64,000 nt of DNA, taken from IMG/VR virus record IMGVR_UViG_3300010396_000011, positions 3,818 to 67,817 of that record, one strand, 5' to 3'. The position numbers and the translations under genes were made by a program. Numbering within the stretch: the stretch's first letter is position 1; every line of letters starts with the position of its first letter. Source of the DNA: a virus. The notes under the pieces were generated by a model. That model saw nothing but the letters and a program-made list of their open reading frames with translations. It was not told the origin of the DNA and made no database searches. Positions 728 to 50,106 of this stretch are shown here, piece after piece.

Positions 728-1441
728 ATGGAACCATCGCTCAACCTTTTTTTCGACGATCTCTGTAGCGGCTTCGGCTGGGACTGGGGCGCGCTCACCG
801 TGGGCGTCGTCTGCGGTACCAACCCGCCGTACGGAGTCGCCGATTTCTTCGCTGTCTTCCCCAAGTTCTTCGGGGTAGCGACCGCAATTCAGGTCGCGAC
901 CACAACTGGATCTGCCGTGGTGCAAGGCACTGGTACGACGTGGCTATCCTCTGGATTCTCCGCAGGGCAACTGGCGAACTCGCCGGCATTCCCGGCTGGG
1001 ACGCTCATCACCAGCGTGGACTCCAATACGCAGATCACGCTCTCTCAACCGGCAACCGCCACGGGAAACGCCAGCATTTCAGTGTTCGCGGCGCCGCTCG
1101 TGCCGATGGCCGTTCTCGCGATGTACATCACGCTCGCGTCCGGCTCGCTGGTTCAGGCCCGCTGGCTGGATACGTGGTTATACGCGATGAGCTTATATGT
1201 CGCGCACTTCGCCACCCTGTACCTGCAATCCGATGGCAGCACATGCACCGCGCCGGGAGCGGTCGCCGCATCGGGACTCGCCCGCGGTATCGCGACTTCA
1301 AAGGGAGTCGGTGGCGTGAGTTTCGGATTCCAGCCGGTCCAAGGATTGGAGCAGTGGGCGGCGTGGACCCTCACCAGCTACGGAACGCAACTCGCGAGCT
1401 TCGCTAAGACCGTGGGCGCGGGACCGGTTTGGGTGCCTTGA
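728..1441 (+). CDS. Head-tail adaptor (DUF4054-like) with an inserted beta-rich domain
   Basis: ADFFAVFPKF, LYVAHFATL, SKGVGGVSFGF and WTLTSYGTQL motifs; synteny. Confidence 0.8.
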   Translation: MEPSLNLFFDDLCSGFGWDWGALTVGVVCGTNPPYGVADFFAVFPKFFGVATAIQVATTTGSAVVQGTGTTWLSSGFSAGQLANSPAFPAGTLITSVDSNTQITLSQPATATGNASISVFAAPLVPMAVLAMYITLASGSLVQARWLDTWLYAMSLYVAHFATLYLQSDGSTCTAPGAVAASGLARGIATSKGVGGVSFGFQPVQGLEQWAAWTLTSYGTQLASFAKTVGAGPVWVP

Positions 1442-1538
1442 CGAGTTGAGGGCCAGTCTTCACCGAGGGCTTTAGAACCGTCTTCAGGTTTGGTTTTTCG
1501 CCGCGCTTGAGCGCATCGATGTATTCGCCGAGAGACAC
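1404..1538 (-). CDS. Putative 44-aa leaderless antisense ORF
   Basis: GTG-start MSLGEYIDALKRGEKPNLK...RS* fills the 1442-1552 gap. TATACT lies 7 nt upstream. Confidence 0.4.
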   Translation of the reverse strand: MSLGEYIDALKRGEKPNLKTVLKPSVKTGPQLVKAPKPVPRPRS

Positions 1539-1552
1539 AGGTTTCAGTATAG

Positions 1553-2023
1553 ATGGCGGCAAAGGTCACCAAGAAAGGCCCCGGACTTGTTGCTCTCGCC
1601 CGCGATCTGAAGCGTCTCGAAAAAAGCGAAGTCCTGGTCGGCATCCCGGCTGATAAGACGCTTCGCAAGGGCGACCCGATCAATAACGCGAGTCTACTTT
1701 TTCTGCACTCCAAAGGGTCACCTATCAACCACATTCCGGCGCGGCCAGTGCTAGAGCCGAGCATTGAGGAAAACAAAAAGATCATCGCTTCGCACCTCGG
1801 CGCGGCGGCCAAAGCCATTCTGGACAAGCAGCCGGACCAGGCGCAACGCGAATTGGAACTCATCGGCACGCTGGCTGCGAATGCGGCCAAGCGGTACATC
1901 ACCAGCGGCGAACTGGCACCGAATGCGCCATCCACGATCGCGCGAAAGGGCAGCGATCAGCCGCTGATCGACACCGGGCAACTGCGGCGCTCTATAACTT
2001 TTGTCGTCCGTGAAGAGAAATGA
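1553..2023 (+). CDS. Neck / virion morphogenesis protein
   Basis: IPARPVL, PNAPSTIARKGSDQPLIDTGQLRRSITF motif. Confidence 0.8.
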   Translation: MAAKVTKKGPGLVALARDLKRLEKSEVLVGIPADKTLRKGDPINNASLLFLHSKGSPINHIPARPVLEPSIEENKKIIASHLGAAAKAILDKQPDQAQRELELIGTLAANAAKRYITSGELAPNAPSTIARKGSDQPLIDTGQLRRSITFVVREEK

Positions 2024-2376
2024 TTTCCCTCGGAGAACTCACCTACGACCCGGATTTGGGCCAGTGCGTCACGATCATCCGCACAACCGGCTCTTTTCAG
2101 CAGGGCGGCTGGCGTGGCACCGAGGCGCAAGTTCAGGCGTACGGAATCGTGACGATCGCAAGCGCCAAGGACCTTCAGCAAGTTCCCGAGGGCGACCGCG
2201 TGCGCGGCTCGCTGATGTTCGTCACGGAGACGCCGATCTACCCGACTTCGGCGGCGGCATCGCAAATCAGCGACGAAATCATCTGGAACGGTGAGCGGTA
2301 TCGCGTGCAGCAAGTTGAGCCCTGGACGCAGTACGGCATGTATGTGGCCGTGCTCGTGAGGATGGCTGGAAATTGA
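2020..2376 (+). CDS. Head closure / head-tail joining protein
   Basis: DLQQVPEGDR...DEIIWNGERYRV motif; synteny. Confidence 0.75.
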   Translation: MISLGELTYDPDLGQCVTIIRTTGSFQQGGWRGTEAQVQAYGIVTIASAKDLQQVPEGDRVRGSLMFVTETPIYPTSAAASQISDEIIWNGERYRVQQVEPWTQYGMYVAVLVRMAGN

Positions 2377-2780
2377 CGCCAGTAGATCAAATCATTTTTG
2401 AAGAAGGCAAGGGAGATTGCCTGCGCACCTGCATTGCGAGCATCCTAAATCTCCCAGTTCTAGACGTGCCCAATTTCGCTGATGACGATAGTTTTATCGG
2501 CGGAGCGATTCAATGGCTGTCCCGTCGCGGAATAACGGCCCTGACCGTTAGCTTCACTGGCAATGGTTACGACCAAAGCCAATATTTCTCCTGCCCCGAG
2601 TTTTGCATTTTGGTAGGGGTTAGCCCGCGCGCGACACCAGAAAAAAGAAAGCAACATGCCGTCGTTGGGCGTGCGATGGGGTGGAGCTTCAAGGTTGAGC
2701 ACGACCCGCATCCAAGCAGGGATGGGATCGTCGGCAATCCGACTTTCGTGATGTGGATATTCCCTCCGCTGATCCCGTAA
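2373..2780 (+). CDS. Hypothetical protein (GDCLRTCIASIL...HAVV...HDPHP; possible papain-like fold) inserted among neck genes
   Basis: 135-aa ORF coupled to the upstream gene; Cys/His/Asp motifs. Confidence 0.6.
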   Translation: MTPVDQIIFEEGKGDCLRTCIASILNLPVLDVPNFADDDSFIGGAIQWLSRRGITALTVSFTGNGYDQSQYFSCPEFCILVGVSPRATPEKRKQHAVVGRAMGWSFKVEHDPHPSRDGIVGNPTFVMWIFPPLIP

Positions 2781-2786
2781 ACGTAA

Positions 2787-3404
2787 ATGTCCACCGTAAC
2801 CTATCCGAACGGCCAGACGCTCACGTCTTCGGCGCTGACCCCCGCGACGCTCGCGACGCTGCTTCAGCCGCTCATCGCTCAGGCTCTCGGTATTGATCCC
2901 ACCGTGCCGAACACGACGGCATGGAGCGCAGTGCGCATCGACTGGCCAGCGGTTGGTCAGCCGGTAGGCGGCATCTCCGAAGATATCTGCTTCATCCGCG
3001 CGACAGCAGACAACGCGCCGTTCAGCCGCGTCCGCGATCAGGAGTACTCGCCCCTCGATAGCGAGACGCTGACGCAAAATATGGGATTCACGCAGGTCTG
3101 GAATCTTCACCTGACGGCGTACGGTCCCAACTGCTTCGACCGGCTACGAGAGATCGTCTCGGCATTCTCTTTCGATTGGCTGTGCCAGTCGCTTGCCGCC
3201 GCGAATCTCTACCCTGTTCCTGATTGGCAGCGTCCGCAATACGCACCCGACCTGTTCCAGGGGCAATGGTGGCCGCGCGCCGATGTTGATCTGAAATTGT
3301 ACGAGTCCGTAACCGAGTCCACCACCGCACCCAGCGCCGCCGGTGTGGACATCACCCTCCAGCCGGATACCGGCGCGGCAGTCGAATTCGAAATCACCGC
3401 GTAG
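2787..3404 (+). CDS. Tail terminator / neck terminator protein
   Basis: AYGPNCFD...PDLFQGQWWPRADV motif; sits just before the sheath gene. Confidence 0.7.
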   Translation: MSTVTYPNGQTLTSSALTPATLATLLQPLIAQALGIDPTVPNTTAWSAVRIDWPAVGQPVGGISEDICFIRATADNAPFSRVRDQEYSPLDSETLTQNMGFTQVWNLHLTAYGPNCFDRLREIVSAFSFDWLCQSLAAANLYPVPDWQRPQYAPDLFQGQWWPRADVDLKLYESVTESTTAPSAAGVDITLQPDTGAAVEFEITA

Positions 3405-3438
3405 CCGAACGGCTCGCAAACCAGAAAGGAAGCTTCTC

Positions 3439-4860
3439 ATGTCCACCTCTTTGCCGCTTTCCTCCATCGTCGGAGTCAGCGTAGTCGTTTCGCCGGCCGC
3501 TTCTCCAGGGCCGAGTTTTAACCAGGCGCTCATCGTCGGGCCAAGCACCGTGATTCCGTCCGTCGGCGCGAACTCGCGAGTCCAGCTTTACCAGTCGTTG
3601 CTCGCTATGCAGCAGGCTGGTTTCAGCATCACGTCGCCCGAATACCTCGCCGCAGAGCTGTACTTCGGCCAACAGCCTCAGCCCACCTTCCTGTGGATCG
3701 GGCGGCAGGATCTCACCGCGATTGAGACCGCCATCGTCGGCGCCAGCGGCGGAACCGGATATACCGTGGGAGACATTCTCACCGTGGTCCAGTCGGGCGC
3801 GAGCGCCGGGCAGTTCAAAGTTACAACCATCGGCGGCGGCGGCGTGGTAACGGGCATCTCGCGAGTCGCTGGTGGCACGGGATACTCTGTCGCGACTAAC
3901 CTTGCGACCACCGGCGGCACCGGAACCGGGGCCGAGATCAATGTCTCAACGATTGGAGAAAGCGCGGTCGAAGCGGTTTCCGCCTGTCGCCTCGCCCAGC
4001 CCGACTGGTACGCCTGCATGTTCGTGGGCACCGCGGTGGATGCGGATCACCTCGCGATCGCGGCATTCATCGAAGCCGCCTCGCCTGCCTCGGTGTACTT
4101 CCTGACGAGCGGATCCAGTGCCGTGCTGAACGGGACGGCGGGAAACCTGTTCGCCGAACTCCAGACGGCGAATTACCGCCGCACCTTCAGCGTGTATTCG
4201 ACGACGCAGGGCGGCACGTTCCCCAACAATACGTACGCCTCCGCCGCGCCGATGGGCATGGCTATGGGCCGCAACAACAAAGCCGTCGGTTCGTACTTTG
4301 ATGTGATGTTCAAACTCATATCGGGAGTGGCGGCCGAGCCCCTGACGCAAACCCAAGTGAACAGCATCTGCGGGACCATTGACCGCTCTTCGAATGGGCT
4401 CAACGGAAATGTCGTGCTGGAATATGCCGGGAACCGTATTTGGCTCCAGCCCGGCACTACGGCGAGCGGCGCGTGGTTCGACGAGGTGCTGAACCTCGAC
4501 ATGCTCGCGGCCGACATACAAAACAGCGCCATCAATCTGTTGACCAGCGTTCCCGCCCTGCCGATTACCAATGCGGGCGTGGCGACCATGCAGGCTGTTA
4601 TTTCTGACGCGTGCGTGCGCGCACAGCAAATCGGCTTTATTGCTTCTTCTGGCCAGTGGGGTGGCGTGCAGATCGGAACCGGACGGGCCGCTATTGAGAA
4701 CGGCGACGCGCTGCCCAACGGGTACGCGCTGTATGCGCCGGCGGTATCGACGCTTTCCAGCGGGCAGCGCTCGGCACGCCTTCTTCCGCCGATCACGGTT
4801 GCGGTCATTGAGGCGCAGAGCGGCCATTCGCTCAGCGTGAACGTCAACGTCCAACGATAG
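3439..4860 (+). CDS. Tail sheath protein (DUF3383-like)
   Basis: ATG 3439 after an AAGGA RBS. LPLSSIVGVSVVVSP, SPEYLAAELYFGQ, FK.ISGV, WFDEVLNLD and HSLSVNVNVQR motifs. Confidence 0.9.
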   Translation: MSTSLPLSSIVGVSVVVSPAASPGPSFNQALIVGPSTVIPSVGANSRVQLYQSLLAMQQAGFSITSPEYLAAELYFGQQPQPTFLWIGRQDLTAIETAIVGASGGTGYTVGDILTVVQSGASAGQFKVTTIGGGGVVTGISRVAGGTGYSVATNLATTGGTGTGAEINVSTIGESAVEAVSACRLAQPDWYACMFVGTAVDADHLAIAAFIEAASPASVYFLTSGSSAVLNGTAGNLFAELQTANYRRTFSVYSTTQGGTFPNNTYASAAPMGMAMGRNNKAVGSYFDVMFKLISGVAAEPLTQTQVNSICGTIDRSSNGLNGNVVLEYAGNRIWLQPGTTASGAWFDEVLNLDMLAADIQNSAINLLTSVPALPITNAGVATMQAVISDACVRAQQIGFIASSGQWGGVQIGTGRAAIENGDALPNGYALYAPAVSTLSSGQRSARLLPPITVAVIEAQSGHSLSVNVNVQR

Positions 4861-42590: not shown

Positions 42591-42908
42591 CCTCCCTCGA
42601 ATCCGCAAGCGACCGCGACTTCACCGAACAGGCGAACCCGCAAGAGCCCGAACCGGACCTCGGCGACGTGTGCCTGCACTGTTGGGCCGTGGGAGATCAG
42701 CCATGCGAACCAGAATGTCCGACGAGAAGGGGGAGAGCGTGAGCGAAGCCCGAAAGCGCCGCAAAGTCGAAGAGGCTGACATGAAAGATCACGTAATCGT
42801 CATCACCGTCTTCACTACGAATGACAAGCAGATTCGGCTTCCTGGGCTTTGCGAGTCCGACGCCTGGGATCTGGCCCACAAGTTAAGGCTATTCGGATTT
42901 GAGTGTGC

Positions 42909-44192
42909 TCAATGACCACAACTAAACAATTCGACCAGATGTGGCAGGGACACACCGTAGTCATCGGTGCTTCGGAGCCAGCACTCCACCAGTCCAGAGA
43001 ACGCTTTGGGCTTCTCAACGTGCTTGGCTTGGCCGAAGAGAACCTTGGCTCTGATGGCTTCAAACGAGTAGCCACGGCCCATTCGGTTGGCGACCTTCGC
43101 CATGCCGTTCACGGCTTCAGTGTAGGCGTTCGTGACCTTGTAGTCGAAGTAGTTGAAGATTTCGGGACGCCAATTGTCCACGGCCCGGATGACCTCAAAG
43201 AAGGCATCGCAGGTCTTCTTATCGCCTTGAAGGTATTCCTTCCATGTGTCGTACAGGTCCATCGCTTCGGCTTTGGTCTTGCAGTCGTAGATCTGGAAGA
43301 AGTCTTCTTTGGCGTTGTATGCGTTGAACAGGATCGGGACCAAATCAGTCCACTCCTGCATTGCCCGGAACTCTTCGGGCGTGAGATCGTGGCGGCGTTT
43401 GAGAAGCAACTTACGGCCTCTCAGGAGCTTGCGCCGTCCTTTCAAATCCAGTCCTTCACGGAAGGTCTTACGGATCGTATCGAGTGCGTGGTTCGCCAGC
43501 TTCACCACATGGAACACGTCTACGATACAGATGGCATTGGGCAAAACGTCCAGCACGGCATCCCGGTACGGCTTCCACATGTCCATGGTGACGACCTGAA
43601 TGCGTTCTTTCTCAGGCAAGCATTGGAGCCACTTCACGACGGTGGGCTTGTTCCTATCCACCAGAATGTCAACGACAGTGTTCTCAGCAACATTGGTCAA
43701 CATGCAACGGGGTTTGCGGATCAGGAACAGTTCGTCGATCCCAAGCCAAACCGGAGTTTCCGGCATCCAGCCGTTGTTCAGGTTGCGAACGTGGTCAAAG
43801 AAGATGTTACGGACGGTCTTTTCGTCCCGGCCCACGTCGCCAGCAACTTGGGTGAAGGTGCGTTCCAGACTCAGGGTCTGGATGTGGTGCAACAGGCGAG
43901 TGGTCATCTGCCGCTTGTCGTCCATGAAGTAGAGCGGCTGGAAGAACGTCTTCTGGCATTCCAAGCATTTGTACCGCTGGCGTCGGACTTGAATCATGGC
44001 ACGCTTGCCATGGATCGGGGTGTCGATGAAGCACTGGATCTGAACGCCGTGCCGCTTCAGTTGCGGCCCTTCAATGCCACACCGGACACAAAACTCAACG
44101 GGCTTGGTGAACTCGGCAGTAATCACCATATCGTGCTCATCTTCCCTTCGATCCAGCACGTTGTAGCCTTCCATTCCCAGAATGTTTGGCAA
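42909..44192 (-). CDS. ISL3-family transposase
   Basis: CxxC zinc fingers, LGIDE, VTMDMWKPY, VDVFHVV, TNAYTEAVN..K...R.GRGY.FE..RAKVL. Likely TTG start at 44192. Confidence 0.95.
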   Translation of the reverse strand: MPNILGMEGYNVLDRREDEHDMVITAEFTKPVEFCVRCGIEGPQLKRHGVQIQCFIDTPIHGKRAMIQVRRQRYKCLECQKTFFQPLYFMDDKRQMTTRLLHHIQTLSLERTFTQVAGDVGRDEKTVRNIFFDHVRNLNNGWMPETPVWLGIDELFLIRKPRCMLTNVAENTVVDILVDRNKPTVVKWLQCLPEKERIQVVTMDMWKPYRDAVLDVLPNAICIVDVFHVVKLANHALDTIRKTFREGLDLKGRRKLLRGRKLLLKRRHDLTPEEFRAMQEWTDLVPILFNAYNAKEDFFQIYDCKTKAEAMDLYDTWKEYLQGDKKTCDAFFEVIRAVDNWRPEIFNYFDYKVTNAYTEAVNGMAKVANRMGRGYSFEAIRAKVLFGQAKHVEKPKAFSGLVECWLRSTDDYGVSLPHLVELFSCGH

Positions 44193-44242
44193 GAGAACAG
44201 GATAACAAGATCGGATTCTTGTGTGCTCACCGGGAGTACCAG

Positions 44243-44908
44243 ATGAGTACCATGCGATTCGCTTACGCAGATCCGCCATACATTGGACAGGCGAAGAAGC
44301 ACTACTCGCATGATCCGGCGTGCGCCGAAGTAGACCACCGGGAACTGATTGATCGGCTCGTGGCCGAATACCCCGATGGGTGGGCGTTGTCTCTTAGTTC
44401 TCCATCGCTCAAGTACATCATTTCGCTTTGCCCGGACGATGTACGGGTGATGCCGTGGGTGAAGCCGTTCTGTTCCTTCAAGCCGGGGGTCGGAGTGGCA
44501 TACGCATGGGAGCCAATCATCGTTCGTGGTGGTAGGCCACGGACACGCCAACAGGCCACCATTCGGGATTGGGTAGAGGCCAACATCACGCTTCAGAAGG
44601 GTCTGTCCGGTGCAAAGCCCAAGCACGTCTGCTACTGGCTCTTCGATGTATTCAATGTACTGCCGGGGGATAGCCTTGATGACTTGTTCCCCGGCACTGG
44701 CATTGTTGGACGTTGCTTCGCTGAGTACACGTCCAAGCCAACCATTACAGACAGTCCGCTCTTCCAGTTCGATGAACGAAGTGCGATGGCAGTAGAAGAC
44801 TTGGAGCGTCAGGGATACCACTTTAATGAGATCCCTGTTGGTGACAAATTACTGCGGATTCCAGTGTGCCCTAACACAGTGAAATCCGAAGAGAGAACGA
44901 ATGAATGA
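44243..44908 (+). CDS. Cargo: minimal amino-methyltransferase-like protein
   Basis: YADPPY at the N-terminus, GAKP, and DDLFPGTG SAM-binding motif (beta-class order). Confidence 0.75.
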   Translation: MSTMRFAYADPPYIGQAKKHYSHDPACAEVDHRELIDRLVAEYPDGWALSLSSPSLKYIISLCPDDVRVMPWVKPFCSFKPGVGVAYAWEPIIVRGGRPRTRQQATIRDWVEANITLQKGLSGAKPKHVCYWLFDVFNVLPGDSLDDLFPGTGIVGRCFAEYTSKPTITDSPLFQFDERSAMAVEDLERQGYHFNEIPVGDKLLRIPVCPNTVKSEERTNE

Positions 44909-45018
44909 ACAGCGAACAATATGCGAAGCAACACACAAGAATCCGAATACCCCAAGTTAAACGACTACTACCCGGAAGCGTTGATTGAGGTGGCGCACAA
45001 GGGCATGAGGATCAGCGT

Positions 45019-45240
45019 ATGACCCCGACCACCTACGCACTCCTCGCCCGCGAGCGCAAGGCCGCGAAGATAGCGGATGCCCTTCAAAAGATCGGCATCA
45101 CCTCCGACGAAGCAGCCACGGCCACGGAGAACGAATATGGCATGGCGGCGGAACTGGCCGGCACGAAGGTTCCGAGTGCGGCGACCTGGGCTGTGGTGGT
45201 GGATATGTTGCGAAGGAGCCAAGCGGGAGCACTGGTATGA
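45019..45240 (+). CDS. Hypothetical protein
   Basis: 73 aa, translationally coupled on both sides. Confidence 0.6.
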   Translation: MTPTTYALLARERKAAKIADALQKIGITSDEAATATENEYGMAAELAGTKVPSAATWAVVVDMLRRSQAGALV

Positions 45241-47601: not shown

Positions 47602-47697
47602 GCTCGGAGGCGCTAGCGATAGCGCCCTCTGGTAGCCGCTGGCAACGTTCCGGTTTCCTGGGGAGGATCTGAGGATTGCGCCAGCGGCTACCTGAGC
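47602..47697 (+). ncRNA. Structured intergenic element (branched hairpin)
   Basis: GGCGCTA-GCGA-TAGCGCC and 13-bp GGTAGCCGCTGGC/GCCAGCGGCTACC, closed by GCTC/GAGC. Confidence 0.5.
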
Positions 47698-47704
47698 AAA
47701 AAAC

Positions 47705-48157
47705 GGCTATTCGGATTTGAGTGTGGAGAAACGTTGAAATGACATTGCATCCAAAATCGGATTCTGGTGTGGCTTCTGGTGACGGTCGGGAAAGTATGCC
47801 GTTACGGGCCGTCGTTCAGGACGGCAATCTAGTCGTCTCCATCGGTATCCGCACGCTGGCTTTTGCCTTTGAGAATGGCGAGGGAAACAACCCGTATGAC
47901 GAGTCTTCAGGGAAGTTCAAGCGGGAGTTCCAGATAGCCGATCCTCTTCAATTTGCCGAAGATGTCTGCCACGAAATCAACGATGAGGAAGAGGACGGCA
48001 GCACGCCGCTGACCCGATTCTTGGATTACATGATGGACAAGGCTGTCGATAACGGCAGTCTCGGAATCTTGGACCCGGAAGACGATGAACCACACGCAGC
48101 GAATCCCGATGGAGTTGACGGTGATGGAGCAAAAACCACACCAGAATCCGAATAGCC
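47705..48157. mobile_element. Non-autonomous ISL3-derived element with a cargo gene
   Basis: Left end is identical to the ISL3 left TIR (21 bp). Right end CCACACCAGAATCCGAATAGCC. Flanks are CAAAAAAC and CAAAAAAAC. Confidence 0.85.
47739..48155 (+). CDS. Cargo: acidic phage hypothetical protein
   Basis: LVVSIGIRTLAFA...EEEDGST.L...D; its stop codon lies inside the right TIR. Confidence 0.7.
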   Translation: MTLHPKSDSGVASGDGRESMPLRAVVQDGNLVVSIGIRTLAFAFENGEGNNPYDESSGKFKREFQIADPLQFAEDVCHEINDEEEDGSTPLTRFLDYMMDKAVDNGSLGILDPEDDEPHAANPDGVDGDGAKTTPESE

Positions 48158-48622: not shown

Positions 48623-50101
48623 GTGTGGCTACACGTCCCATCCGAATGCTCTCCCTGTTCTCCGGCGCCGGTGGACTTGACCTCGGAATCCGAATCGCTC
48701 TACCAGGCGTTCGAACACTCTGTTACGTGGAGAGGGAACTCGCGGCCTGCCAGATCCTGGCGGCGCGCATGGCCGATGGATCGGCTGAGCCAGCACCCAT
48801 CTTTACGGACATTGCCGCCTTCGATGGCCACCCGTGGCGTGGAGCAGTGGATCTCATTGTGGGCGGATTCCCTTGCACCGACCTGTCCGTCGCCGGGAAA
48901 CGCGCCGGCATCACCGGAGAACACTCGGGACTCTGGTTTGAATACCTCCGCATCATTCGCGAGGTGCAACCCCGATGGGTCTTTATCGAGAATGTGCCGG
49001 CAGTTATCGCTGATCCCGCTGGAGGAATCGTACTCGGAGGGCTTGCCGAAGTCGGGTTCGATGCGGAATGGATATCTCTTCGAGCGTCCGACGTGGGAGC
49101 GCCCCACAAGCGGGAGCGGGTCTTTATCCTGGCCGTCTCCAAGGAGCGAGGATTCCGAGAGTTGCGGCAATCATCCGGGAGCGAACGATTCGTTGACGGG
49201 AATGGCTGGCCCGTGGAACACGCCGTCAACGGAGGACACCAAGACGGATGGACCAGCGGTTCTGGAGAGGTACGGAACGGCCGCCATGAAGACGTGCGAC
49301 ATGAGACTTCGGAATCAAATCGAGGCATGGGCGACACCGCGGGCGAACGATCCAGAGAAGCGCGGGAACTTCGACCCCACGGACCCGATGACGGGGATAG
49401 CGGGGCAGGCGGCGATGTGGACGACTCCGCAATCCCACGACACAGCACCGGGAGATCCGAGCCGAGTAGGGCGGTACGGGACGGAGCACGGCGGCCGGAA
49501 TCTGACGGACGACGTGATGCTGTGGCGGACGCCGGATGCTCCGGGGAGCGGCGATCCAAGGAATCGCCAGAACTCAATCGGCAACGGACATCAGGTGACG
49601 ATTGCCGAGCAAGCGGAGAGCTTCTGGTACACCCCGAACACCCCGAACGGCGGACGCCCTGTATCTGCGGACGTTGTGGAATCGAAGGGGCAGACGGAGG
49701 ACGGCAAGCGGCAAGTGGGGCTGGAGAGTCAGTCGCGGCATTGGCCGACGCCGGCGGCGAGGGATTACAGGAGCGAAGCGGGGAGCGAAGCGACGGTAAC
49801 GCACTTCAACCGCGCGGCGGGGCCGAGTTTGCCGGCGATGATCGAGCACGGATTTTCCCTCCCGGACCCGCAGACCGAGACGGATGGGCAGAGCTCTTGC
49901 GGACGCACCCGCACTTCGCGCCTGCGATTGAACCCGGCCTTCGTGTGTCTGTTGATGGGCTGGCCCTGGTGGTTGACGAGGCCCGAACCGATCAGCTTCG
50001 CGCGGCGGGAAATGGAGTCGTGGCTCTCTGCGCAGCGCTGGCATTTACGGTCCTTGCTCACCGCGCGGGGCTTGACCTGTCGGAATTCGGAGGACTGTTG
50101 A
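48623..50101 (+). CDS. Overlapping-frame partner chain (WxTP repeats plus motif IX)
   Basis: 492-codon open frame; seven W.[TS]P repeats; RLNPAFVCLLMGWP. Confidence 0.7.
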   Translation: MWLHVPSECSPCSPAPVDLTSESESLYQAFEHSVTWRGNSRPARSWRRAWPMDRLSQHPSLRTLPPSMATRGVEQWISLWADSLAPTCPSPGNAPASPENTRDSGLNTSASFARCNPDGSLSRMCRQLSLIPLEESYSEGLPKSGSMRNGYLFERPTWERPTSGSGSLSWPSPRSEDSESCGNHPGANDSLTGMAGPWNTPSTEDTKTDGPAVLERYGTAAMKTCDMRLRNQIEAWATPRANDPEKRGNFDPTDPMTGIAGQAAMWTTPQSHDTAPGDPSRVGRYGTEHGGRNLTDDVMLWRTPDAPGSGDPRNRQNSIGNGHQVTIAEQAESFWYTPNTPNGGRPVSADVVESKGQTEDGKRQVGLESQSRHWPTPAARDYRSEAGSEATVTHFNRAAGPSLPAMIEHGFSLPDPQTETDGQSSCGRTRTSRLRLNPAFVCLLMGWPWWLTRPEPISFARREMESWLSAQRWHLRSLLTARGLTCRNSEDC

Positions 50102-50106
50102 AGTGA
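48625..50106 (+). CDS. DNA cytosine-C5 methyltransferase, catalytic chain (motifs I-VIII and X)
   Basis: LSLFSGAGGLDLG, GGFPCTDLSVAG, FIENV, GAPHKRERVFI, LRAAGNGVV. Confidence 0.9.
   Translation: MATRPIRMLSLFSGAGGLDLGIRIALPGVRTLCYVERELAACQILAARMADGSAEPAPIFTDIAAFDGHPWRGAVDLIVGGFPCTDLSVAGKRAGITGEHSGLWFEYLRIIREVQPRWVFIENVPAVIADPAGGIVLGGLAEVGFDAEWISLRASDVGAPHKRERVFILAVSKERGFRELRQSSGSERFVDGNGWPVEHAVNGGHQDGWTSGSGEVRNGRHEDVRHETSESNRGMGDTAGERSREARELRPHGPDDGDSGAGGDVDDSAIPRHSTGRSEPSRAVRDGARRPESDGRRDAVADAGCSGERRSKESPELNRQRTSGDDCRASGELLVHPEHPERRTPCICGRCGIEGADGGRQAASGAGESVAALADAGGEGLQERSGERSDGNALQPRGGAEFAGDDRARIFPPGPADRDGWAELLRTHPHFAPAIEPGLRVSVDGLALVVDEARTDQLRAAGNGVVALCAALAFTVLAHRAGLDLSEFGGLLK

Follow-up and report, generated by a model that had tools for sequence, protein, structure and literature searches.

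A passenger-carrying ISL3 insertion sequence with conserved internal end-like sites, and a transposase-less cassette of the same lineage, in a phage genome

What do copies of a transposon's end motif do inside the transposon itself, on either side of a passenger gene? The question is raised by an element at positions 42887-44952 of a 64,000-nucleotide stretch of viral DNA (the window: positions 3,818 to 67,817 of IMG/VR record IMGVR_UViG_3300010396_000011). The record, of 67,817 bases, is complete and has direct terminal repeats, and the window covers most of it. An initial annotation recognised an ISL3 transposon here and proposed that its end motifs are re-deposited around captured segments, so that cassette-like arrays are built up. 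Comparison with relatives of the element leads us to a different reading, which we hold to be probable: this is an autonomous, passenger-carrying ISL3 insertion sequence (IS) located in a phage early gene, its internal motif copies are conserved sites and not scars of capture, its cargo lies in a slot between two of these sites (S3 and IRi), and a second, shorter unit in the window, element 2, is a non-autonomous derivative.

A plain ISL3 IS measures about 1.2-1.5 kb and carries a transposase gene only. The element under study is 2066 bp long and has a 666-bp passenger open reading frame (ORF) inside it, and is thus a passenger-carrying IS and not a plain one. It holds two credible genes, for the transposase and for the cargo, and no other recombinase gene. 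Its terminal arms (42887-42907 and 44932-44952) are 21 nt long, pair at 17/21 positions (81% complementary) and have GG at their tips, and a perfect 8-bp target-site duplication, CAAGTTAA, stands on both sides. The transposase matches Pfam DDE_Tnp_ISL3 (PF01610) at 1.6e-58 over profile positions 1-239 of 240, HTH_Tnp_ISL3 at 6.6e-9 (35.5 bits, cut-off 27.4) and NCBIfam NF033550 (ISL3 transposase) with 272 bits against a cut-off of 180; Zn_ribbon_ISL3 scores 24.6 bits, slightly below its cut-off of 25.5. By these profile matches the gene encodes an intact ISL3 transposase, and the identification of an ISL3 element with terminal inverted repeats and a perfect 8-bp duplication holds. The parts of the element, in which N3 is the spacer of the end core TCGGATT-N3-GTGTG, are as follows:

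42879..42886, no strand: target-site duplication, left copy, CAAGTTAA, identical to 44953-44960
42887..42907, + strand: terminal inverted repeat RE, at the 3' end of the transposase gene; core 42893-42907, N3 = TGA
42909..44174, - strand: ISL3 transposase gene, 421 aa; ATG at 44174, alternative start TTG at 44192; relatives align from residue 1
44211..44225, + strand: internal site IRi, in RE orientation, ahead of both start codons by 37 bp (transposase) and 18 bp (cargo); without terminal GGnTAT
44226..44242, + strand: leader from IRi to the cargo start, containing a GGGAG stretch that resembles a ribosome-binding site; partly common to a transposase-less unit of another locus (unit A of L058) and to one contig of run X5
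44243..44908, + strand: cargo ORF, 221 aa, MT-A70/beta-class N6-adenine methyltransferase-like by fold model and motifs
44854..44868, + strand: site S3, the facing site, +78 from the tip; one mismatch; the cargo boundary lies 2 nt outside S3
44875..44889, - strand: site S2, subterminal, +57 from the tip; one mismatch
44932..44952, - strand: terminal inverted repeat LE (site T1), on the cargo side; N3 = CTT; identical 21-mer in the related element L058B
44953..44960, no strand: target-site duplication, right copy, CAAGTTAA, perfect 8 bp

The exact core occurs six times in the window, as compared to a mean of 0.02 in 100 shuffles, none of which (0/100) reaches six. All six lie within two elements and are the only ones in the whole 67,817-base record: three in the main element, at 42893 (+), 44211 (+) and 44932 (-), and the other three in element 2. 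At up to two mismatches the signal is weak (12 matches, 5.96 expected), and the background of the core at up to one mismatch is 0 in 40 kb. IRi (44211-44225) is 100% complementary over 15 nt to 44932-44946, and two further copies, 44854-44868 (+) and 44875-44889 (-), face each other with one mismatch each. The recurrence of the core inside the element, the perfect 15-bp inverted pair and the two facing copies had all been noticed in the initial annotation, and on these points we agree with it.

The origin of the copies can be judged from relatives of the transposase, which were collected from viral contigs (5 loci), metagenomes (80 kept of 145) and genomes (80 kept of 136). A script screened 166 loci, and 61 elements, 40 of them non-redundant, were delimited by GG tips and 8/8 duplications. 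The complete elements closest to the one studied here (OWN1) are L053 and L058B (transposase identity 70% each), L059 (61%) and L068 (52%). All five follow one layout of five sites, with order, orientation and spacing unchanged. Read in transposase orientation, T1 points inward and is followed by S2 (+57), which has the direction of T1, and by S3 (+78), which faces S2; the variable cargo comes next, then IRi in the orientation of RE, then the transposase gene, and the terminal site RE closes the far end, with TGA as its N3 in every case. The RE 21-mer of the main element also ends element 2, L058B and L059. L053, L058B, L059 and L068 have perfect 8-bp duplications of their own (GTTTTTTT, GTTACGCC, GGCTGATG and AGTGATTC, GTTACGCC being that of L058B), and from these distinct duplications we infer that the element is mobile. 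Relatives of the autonomous element are found in at least two other viral contigs (L053 and L054) and, in L058, beside an endolysin gene.

The layout extends beyond these five elements. Of the 12 left ends, 11, all but that of element 2, share the aligned left-end triple (T1, S2 and S3), and the copy at +56/57 is present in 34 of the 40 non-redundant elements, down to 42% transposase identity. In 9 of the 14 loci that have at least 50% identity and upstream sequence present, IRi precedes the aligned transposase start by 51-53 bp; in all nine elements that possess it the outer GGnTAT is missing, which makes IRi an unlikely cleavable end. Internal copies that keep to +57, +78 and 51-53 bp upstream of the transposase start do not behave as motifs re-deposited around captured segments. 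Invariant subterminal or promoter binding sites, the outcome that the initial annotation had set beforehand against its own proposal, are what the relatives show, and the copy at 44875, which it had taken for the relic of a right end, is the conserved +57 site S2 (34/40).

The spacers tell the same story. T1 and IRi are identical at 15/15 positions in both elements of the window, as had been seen for the main one, and at 14/15 in a copy of element 2 in another contig (L007), which differs by one base; the shared positions number 11/15 in L058B, 11/15 in L059, 9/15 in L053 and 12/15 in L068. The N3 match of T1 and IRi is thus local to the two elements of this phage, and matching spacers are not a general property of the motif pairs. 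S2 and S3 differ in N3, with no co-variation between the spacers of the two arms. We considered S2/S3 as a hairpin or RNA stem and rejected it, as the z-scores of the DNA fold in five elements are uneven (-5.2, -1.9, -3.8, -1.25 and -1.2) and the N3 lacks co-variation; the uneven hairpin potential and the N3 mismatch argue for S2 and S3 as candidate protein sites rather than a selected stem.

The conserved sites bound a cargo that varies. L059 carries a C5 methylase (Pfam 2.1e-41) and unit A of L058 a weak C5 methylase match (1.1e-4); a transposase-less cassette in L054 and L121 carry N6_N4_Mtase genes, L053 a radical-SAM-like protein (PHROG 1e-8), L058B a phage domain of unknown function (PHROG 1.9e-33), and element 2 an ORF that matches PHROGs of unknown function. 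DNA methyltransferases account for 5 of about 12 cargo sets. A group at 50-55% identity carries several small ORFs in the direction of the transposase. In the clade at 60-70% identity, the cargo is antisense to the transposase, starts 18-30 nt from IRi on an element-supplied ATG-RGT-ACY that gives MST... or MGTAN..., and in 5/5 cases continues across S3 and stops within S2 or past it. DNA homology between elements extends from the left end to just past S3 and resumes at IRi or at the cargo start codon. Among five elements whose transposase modules are 86-94% identical, it sets in exactly at the IRi edge or one position off (offset 0 or -1) in 10/10 pairs. The initial annotation had reported a passenger gene and had suggested that variable cargo is bounded by copies of the end motif; both statements stand, and extend to the relatives.

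Contigs from other metagenomes also hold backbones 94-100% identical to that of the element with different DNA in the slot. Contigs of run X1 cover the whole stretch, and X1 is possibly the source sample and not an independent one. For X2, X5 and X8, which have no cover over 44380-44824, the contig joints alone were used and the lack of cover was not. Runs X3, X4, X6, X7 and X9-X24, whose word shares are small, were left aside. An X2 contig of 3124 bases can be aligned to 42887-44228, with 75 changed letters and 10 gaps, and to 44852-44952, with 3 changed letters. Between the two, where the cargo has 623 letters, it has 694 different ones, and TTCTTTTC is common to its loose ends on both sides; the different slot content and its own flanking TTCTTTTC indicate a related element located elsewhere with another cargo. 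Contigs of X5 and X8 follow the backbone to 44228 and 44242, respectively, and then diverge, and their joints on the other side run to 44851 and 44852, one side being 30 letters at 90% likeness; they are thus taken to come from related elements and not from this phage.

The similarities of the modules on the two sides of the slot are incongruent. By its left end OWN1 is closest to L058B (91%), whereas by transposase module L058B pairs with L059 (85%, as compared to 77% for OWN1), and the leader and IRi region of OWN1 (909-941) is 91% like that of L058 unit A (L058 1789-1821); a loose end of X5 lies at 44228, in the same region. This incongruence suggests that the cargo is reshuffled by recombination in the conserved modules.

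The cargo ORF of the main element is built into this frame, since the element sequence supplies its first 3 codons and its last ~17 codons with the stop, and viral homologues match residues 2-165 only. Its family comprises 6552 homologues, mostly of ~175 aa and unnamed. The ORF has no match in Pfam or NCBIfam, its best E-value among PDB sequences is 0.66, and its PHROG match is weak (0.0022). The AlphaFold model (pLDDT 84.5) matches the folds of METTL3 (E 2.9e-5), CcrM, M.BceJIV (TMq 0.51) and M1.HpyAVI, with E-values down to 2.9e-5 at TM values of only 0.35-0.51. The DPPY and FPGTG motifs are kept in 49 homologues, D10, P12, Y13, P150 and G151 being invariant and P11 and G153 conserved at 90% or more. 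Model and motifs together point to an N6-adenine-methyltransferase-like protein. The viral loci with homologues of the cargo hold no ISL3 transposase match, no exact core and no site cluster (23/23), so these homologues appear to be ordinary phage genes, and the cargo was probably taken from the phage gene pool. One homologue, P0002 (80-81% identical), has an MGTAN start and a similar left-end-coded tail at its end, as expected for the same kind of gene in another backbone. Another, P0003, has a 40-aa N-terminal extension that is apparently read through site-like sequence, and may represent the cargo gene family placed in the slot of another element in the opposite orientation.

The element also contains reading frames that had been taken for gene stubs. 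The one ending in ...SDSCVLTGSTR* is the end of the following ORF, which is probably a compositional artefact:

42903..44246, + strand: shadow ORF antisense to the transposase gene, 447 aa; ORFs of the same kind occur in L053, L058 and L059

The other (MNEQRTICE...) is read from the conserved 57-bp left-end spacer, and the same letters are present in L058.

Element 2, which is absent from the initial annotation, shows that tips of this type also move without a transposase gene between them:

47705..48157, + strand: element 2, 453 bp, transposase-less cassette; flanks CAAAAAAC and CAAAAAAA (7/8 match)
47705-47725: RE of element 2
47757-47771: IRi of element 2
47796-48155: ORF of element 2, 119 aa, acidic
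48137-48157: LE of element 2

It has full GG tips, and its RE is identical to that of the autonomous element at 21/21 positions, which suggests that the latter could mobilise it. A copy (93.8% over 454 bp) is located at 3186-3638 of L007, an unrelated phage contig, between unrelated flanks and within a perfect duplication of its own, GAAATAAT (8/8); it adjoins ORFs named by eye as HNH-like and terminase-like. Element 2 is all that the window and L007 have in common, and the duplications differ; it is thus mobile. It thus combines IS tips, a non-transposase gene, copies at unrelated loci and a duplication (8/8 in L007), the features of a mobile insertion cassette. Directly upstream of its insertion point in the window, an A-run, two GC-rich palindromes (47603-47700) look by eye like terminators after the RecT-like gene.

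The other ARRANGEMENTS, two multi-unit loci (L054 and L058), are ordinary nested or adjacent insertions, and do not form the cassette-like arrays that had been proposed. The L054 cassette (1278-3004, 1727 bp) has no transposase, full GG tips, the duplication ACAATATG and an N6_N4 methylase gene; within the stretch L054 1177-4253, it is inserted at about codon 13 of the transposase gene of a resident element, 87 bp beyond the resident IRi. In L058, a complete element (1950-3856, duplication GTTACGCC) lies 124 bp from transposase-less unit A (953-1826), which consists of the complete left-end triple, an ORF with a weak C5-methylase match and a site resembling IRi, with 33 bp that are 91% like the IRi region of the window. 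We rejected unit A as a clean cassette, as it shows no target duplication and no matching 8-mer beyond the IRi-like site; it may be a decayed or rearranged one. The arrangement of L054 and L058 hints at insertion close to binding sites that belong to the element itself.

How, then, would the sites serve the element? The transposase probably recognises the 15-bp site TCGGATT-N3-GTGTG, and would cleave only at the two copies with an outer GGnTAT, which are the tips, leaving the 8-bp duplication. The S2/S3 pair at +57 and +78 would make the cargo-side end asymmetric and distinct. IRi, in the 70 bp that separate the divergent starts of transposase and cargo, would be an operator through which the transposase regulates its own gene, and possibly also an accessory site for transpososome assembly. 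The passenger would use the leader and start codon of the element and run out into the left-end sites, and an N6-adenine-methyltransferase-like cargo would plausibly act against restriction. The content of the slot would be reshuffled mainly by recombination in the conserved flanking modules, and element 2 would presumably be mobilised in trans.

Several points weigh against this picture. Binding of the sites by the transposase, regulation through IRi and the route of cargo exchange are predictions from sequence, and a sigma-70 promoter and terminator scan of 42700-45100 gave nothing above shuffles (one promoter-like site, 1.2 expected; one terminator-like site, 2.2 expected; none near IRi). 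IRi was not found at up to three mismatches in five of the 14 relatives (L060, L065, L066, L067 and L069), and the clade yielded no cargo-free member: of the 61 elements measured, the shortest has 1907 bp. Element 2 moved without S2/S3, so these sites are not strictly needed in trans, and the picture gives no reason why tip and IRi agree at 15/15 positions in each of this phage's two elements. Finally, junctions at the same nucleotide in 10/10 pairs, and at 44851/44852 in three other samples, are tighter than conservation with random capture predicts and hint at a site-directed step: module recombination leaves unaccounted for how each new gene was first joined at that nucleotide.

For this last reason we keep, as a bold reading with a small but real chance of being right, a site-directed exchange in which S3 (+78) and IRi, as direct repeats flanking the cargo, would be cut and rejoined by the transposase or by a recruited host function, making the S3-IRi segment a true exchange slot: the phage-borne ISL3 transposase, or a partner, would swap trimmed ORFs at two 15-bp sites, and these would be expressed from the leader and start of the element, as on an integron-type expression platform built on an IS. 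Such an exchange would account for the nucleotide-precise junctions at IRi and at 44851/44852 (X2, X5 and X8), at which at least 8 unrelated cargoes are joined to the same edges, and for backbones 94-100% alike with different cargo; the cargo ORFs are trimmed to within a few codons at both ends, those of the 60-70% clade reading through S3 in 5/5 cases, and the native C-termini of cargo homologues end near the junction. However, the only recombinase encoded is a DDE transposase, no free cassette, array or empty slot was seen (nor do the contigs of the coded runs show a circle or an empty-site joint), and S3 and IRi within an element agree by eye at only 9-14 of 15 positions, against a recent duplication. 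Recombination in the ~100-bp left-end and transposase modules, moreover, would keep old junctions and so mimic precision.

Two further explanations start from the internal copies themselves. If IRi were a working alternative right end, 44211-44952 would be a cargo-only mini-transposon with the transposase gene alongside. The perfect 15-bp inverted pair of tip and IRi, here and in element 2, is what one would expect of such a nested cassette, and units devoid of a transposase do occur (element 2, unit A of L058 and the cassette of L054). But the L054 cassette, the one clean case with a duplication (ACAATATG), has full GG tips and not an IRi at its ends, element 2 retains a complete RE outside IRi and its duplications flank the full tips, and unit A has no duplication around its IRi end. 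In OWN1 itself, no 8-bp repeats were found around the left-end module alone or around the IRi-to-RE segment. With IRi devoid of the terminal GGnTAT in 9/9 elements, and tip and IRi alike at only 9-12 of 15 positions in L053, L058B, L059 and L068, we consider this quite unlikely. The iterative capture proposed in the initial annotation, in which each event leaves a new pair of end motifs, arrays grow and the copies at 44854 and 44875 are relics of an earlier end, appears highly improbable. The internal copies do flank the cargo and two units do lie side by side in L058, but the same copies stand at the same distances regardless of the cargo, the second unit of L058 was inserted independently and has a separate duplication (GTTACGCC), the N3 matching is not general and no element exceeds the standard set of sites. 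Conserved sites around a variable slot thus remain the reading that we prefer.

How does this element compare to known systems? ISL3 elements with passengers are known, and the finding here is a passenger-carrying ISL3 element together with a mobile insertion cassette. ISPpu12 reportedly carries four ORFs. ISPpu12, from Pseudomonas putida plasmid pWW0, is an ISL3 element with imperfect ~24-bp repeats and 8-bp duplications that holds czcD inside, transposes independently and has an internal promoter suggested to be active (PMC3735179). It is alike in family, in passenger genes inside the element and in 8-bp duplications; compared by description only, it differs in a metal- and lipoprotein-related, apparently fixed cargo and in its hosts, which are proteobacterial plasmids and not phages. 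Closer at hand is a widespread group of ISL3 elements among the loci screened (L077-L217, e.g. L164 1516-5305), from Streptococcus, Haemophilus, Bacillus and other genera, Firmicutes among them; most carry MerR and a mercuric-reductase-like protein. These elements are 2028-4905 bp long, mostly 3.79 kb, with identical tips and an 8-bp duplication each. They share with ours transposases at 42-46% identity, GG tips, 8-bp duplications, a left-end copy at +56 and a cargo located between the left end and the transposase gene. In contrast, their cargo runs in the direction of the transposase, no IRi-like site was detected upstream of the transposase at the mismatch level used, and the titles of their loci are those of bacterial genome contigs. 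We found no published name for this group in the parts of the literature searched.

Mobile insertion cassettes, described in the IS231 and Bacillus cereus literature, consist of IS ends around passenger genes and no transposase. Element 2 and the L054 cassette resemble them in having IS-type tips, a non-transposase gene, 8-bp duplications and copies in unrelated contexts, and differ in belonging to the ISL3 lineage and in residing in phage genomes; element 2, in addition, keeps IRi. The likeness to integrons is mechanistic only, and consists of a fixed expression slot, exchangeable and tightly trimmed ORFs, and short repeated sites that bound them; the platform here is a DDE transposon, and the element has no tyrosine recombinase, no sites of the attI/attC type and no arrays. 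The literature searched, as far as its texts were accessible and with ISfinder, TnPedia and supplements outside it, holds no description of internal end-like sites, a variable slot or methyltransferase passengers in phage-borne ISL3 elements.

To our knowledge, insertion sequences are uncommon in phage genomes, and the complete phage studied here carries two related ISL3-type units, the autonomous element and the cassette, of which the latter recurs in a third viral contig (L007). The frequency of methyltransferase passengers suggests transposition as a route by which phages may acquire and exchange anti-restriction and other accessory genes, and the conserved five-site layout gives a concrete model, open to testing, of the way in which a transposase of the ISL3 family may arrange its ends and regulate itself. 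Cargo boundaries precise to the nucleotide make one ask whether the exchange is site-directed, which can be tested; were the exchange slot real, it would be the counterpart of an integron on a DDE transposon, moving anti-restriction and other early genes between unrelated phages.

The neighbours of the element are early genes, among them those of a RecT-like protein (9.9e-76) and an exonuclease (3.7e-18), and the insertion appears to have split a small phage ORF:

42781..42886, + strand: 5' part of the split phage ORF, with in-frame continuation at 44961-45022 (frames read from the sequence)

Removal of the element and one copy of the duplication gives a single ORF of ~57 codons, whose stop overlaps the next ATG (45019). 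It is on the duplication and the restored reading frame only, an uninterrupted target not having been obtained, that we base the insertion into a phage ORF. No empty site was found: the neighbouring exonuclease gene has no relative among the viral contigs, and the L007 phage has nothing but element 2 in common with the window. An ATG at 44921, inside the left end, reads outward and in frame into the severed 3' part (44921-45022), so that a short fusion peptide with the cut phage ORF is possible.

Downstream of element 2, two long ORFs overlap in neighbouring frames at 48623-50106. By eye, the ORF at 48625-50106 resembles C5 cytosine methyltransferases (FSGAGG ... GGFPC); if it is one, it would be a further phage methylase, outside the transposon.

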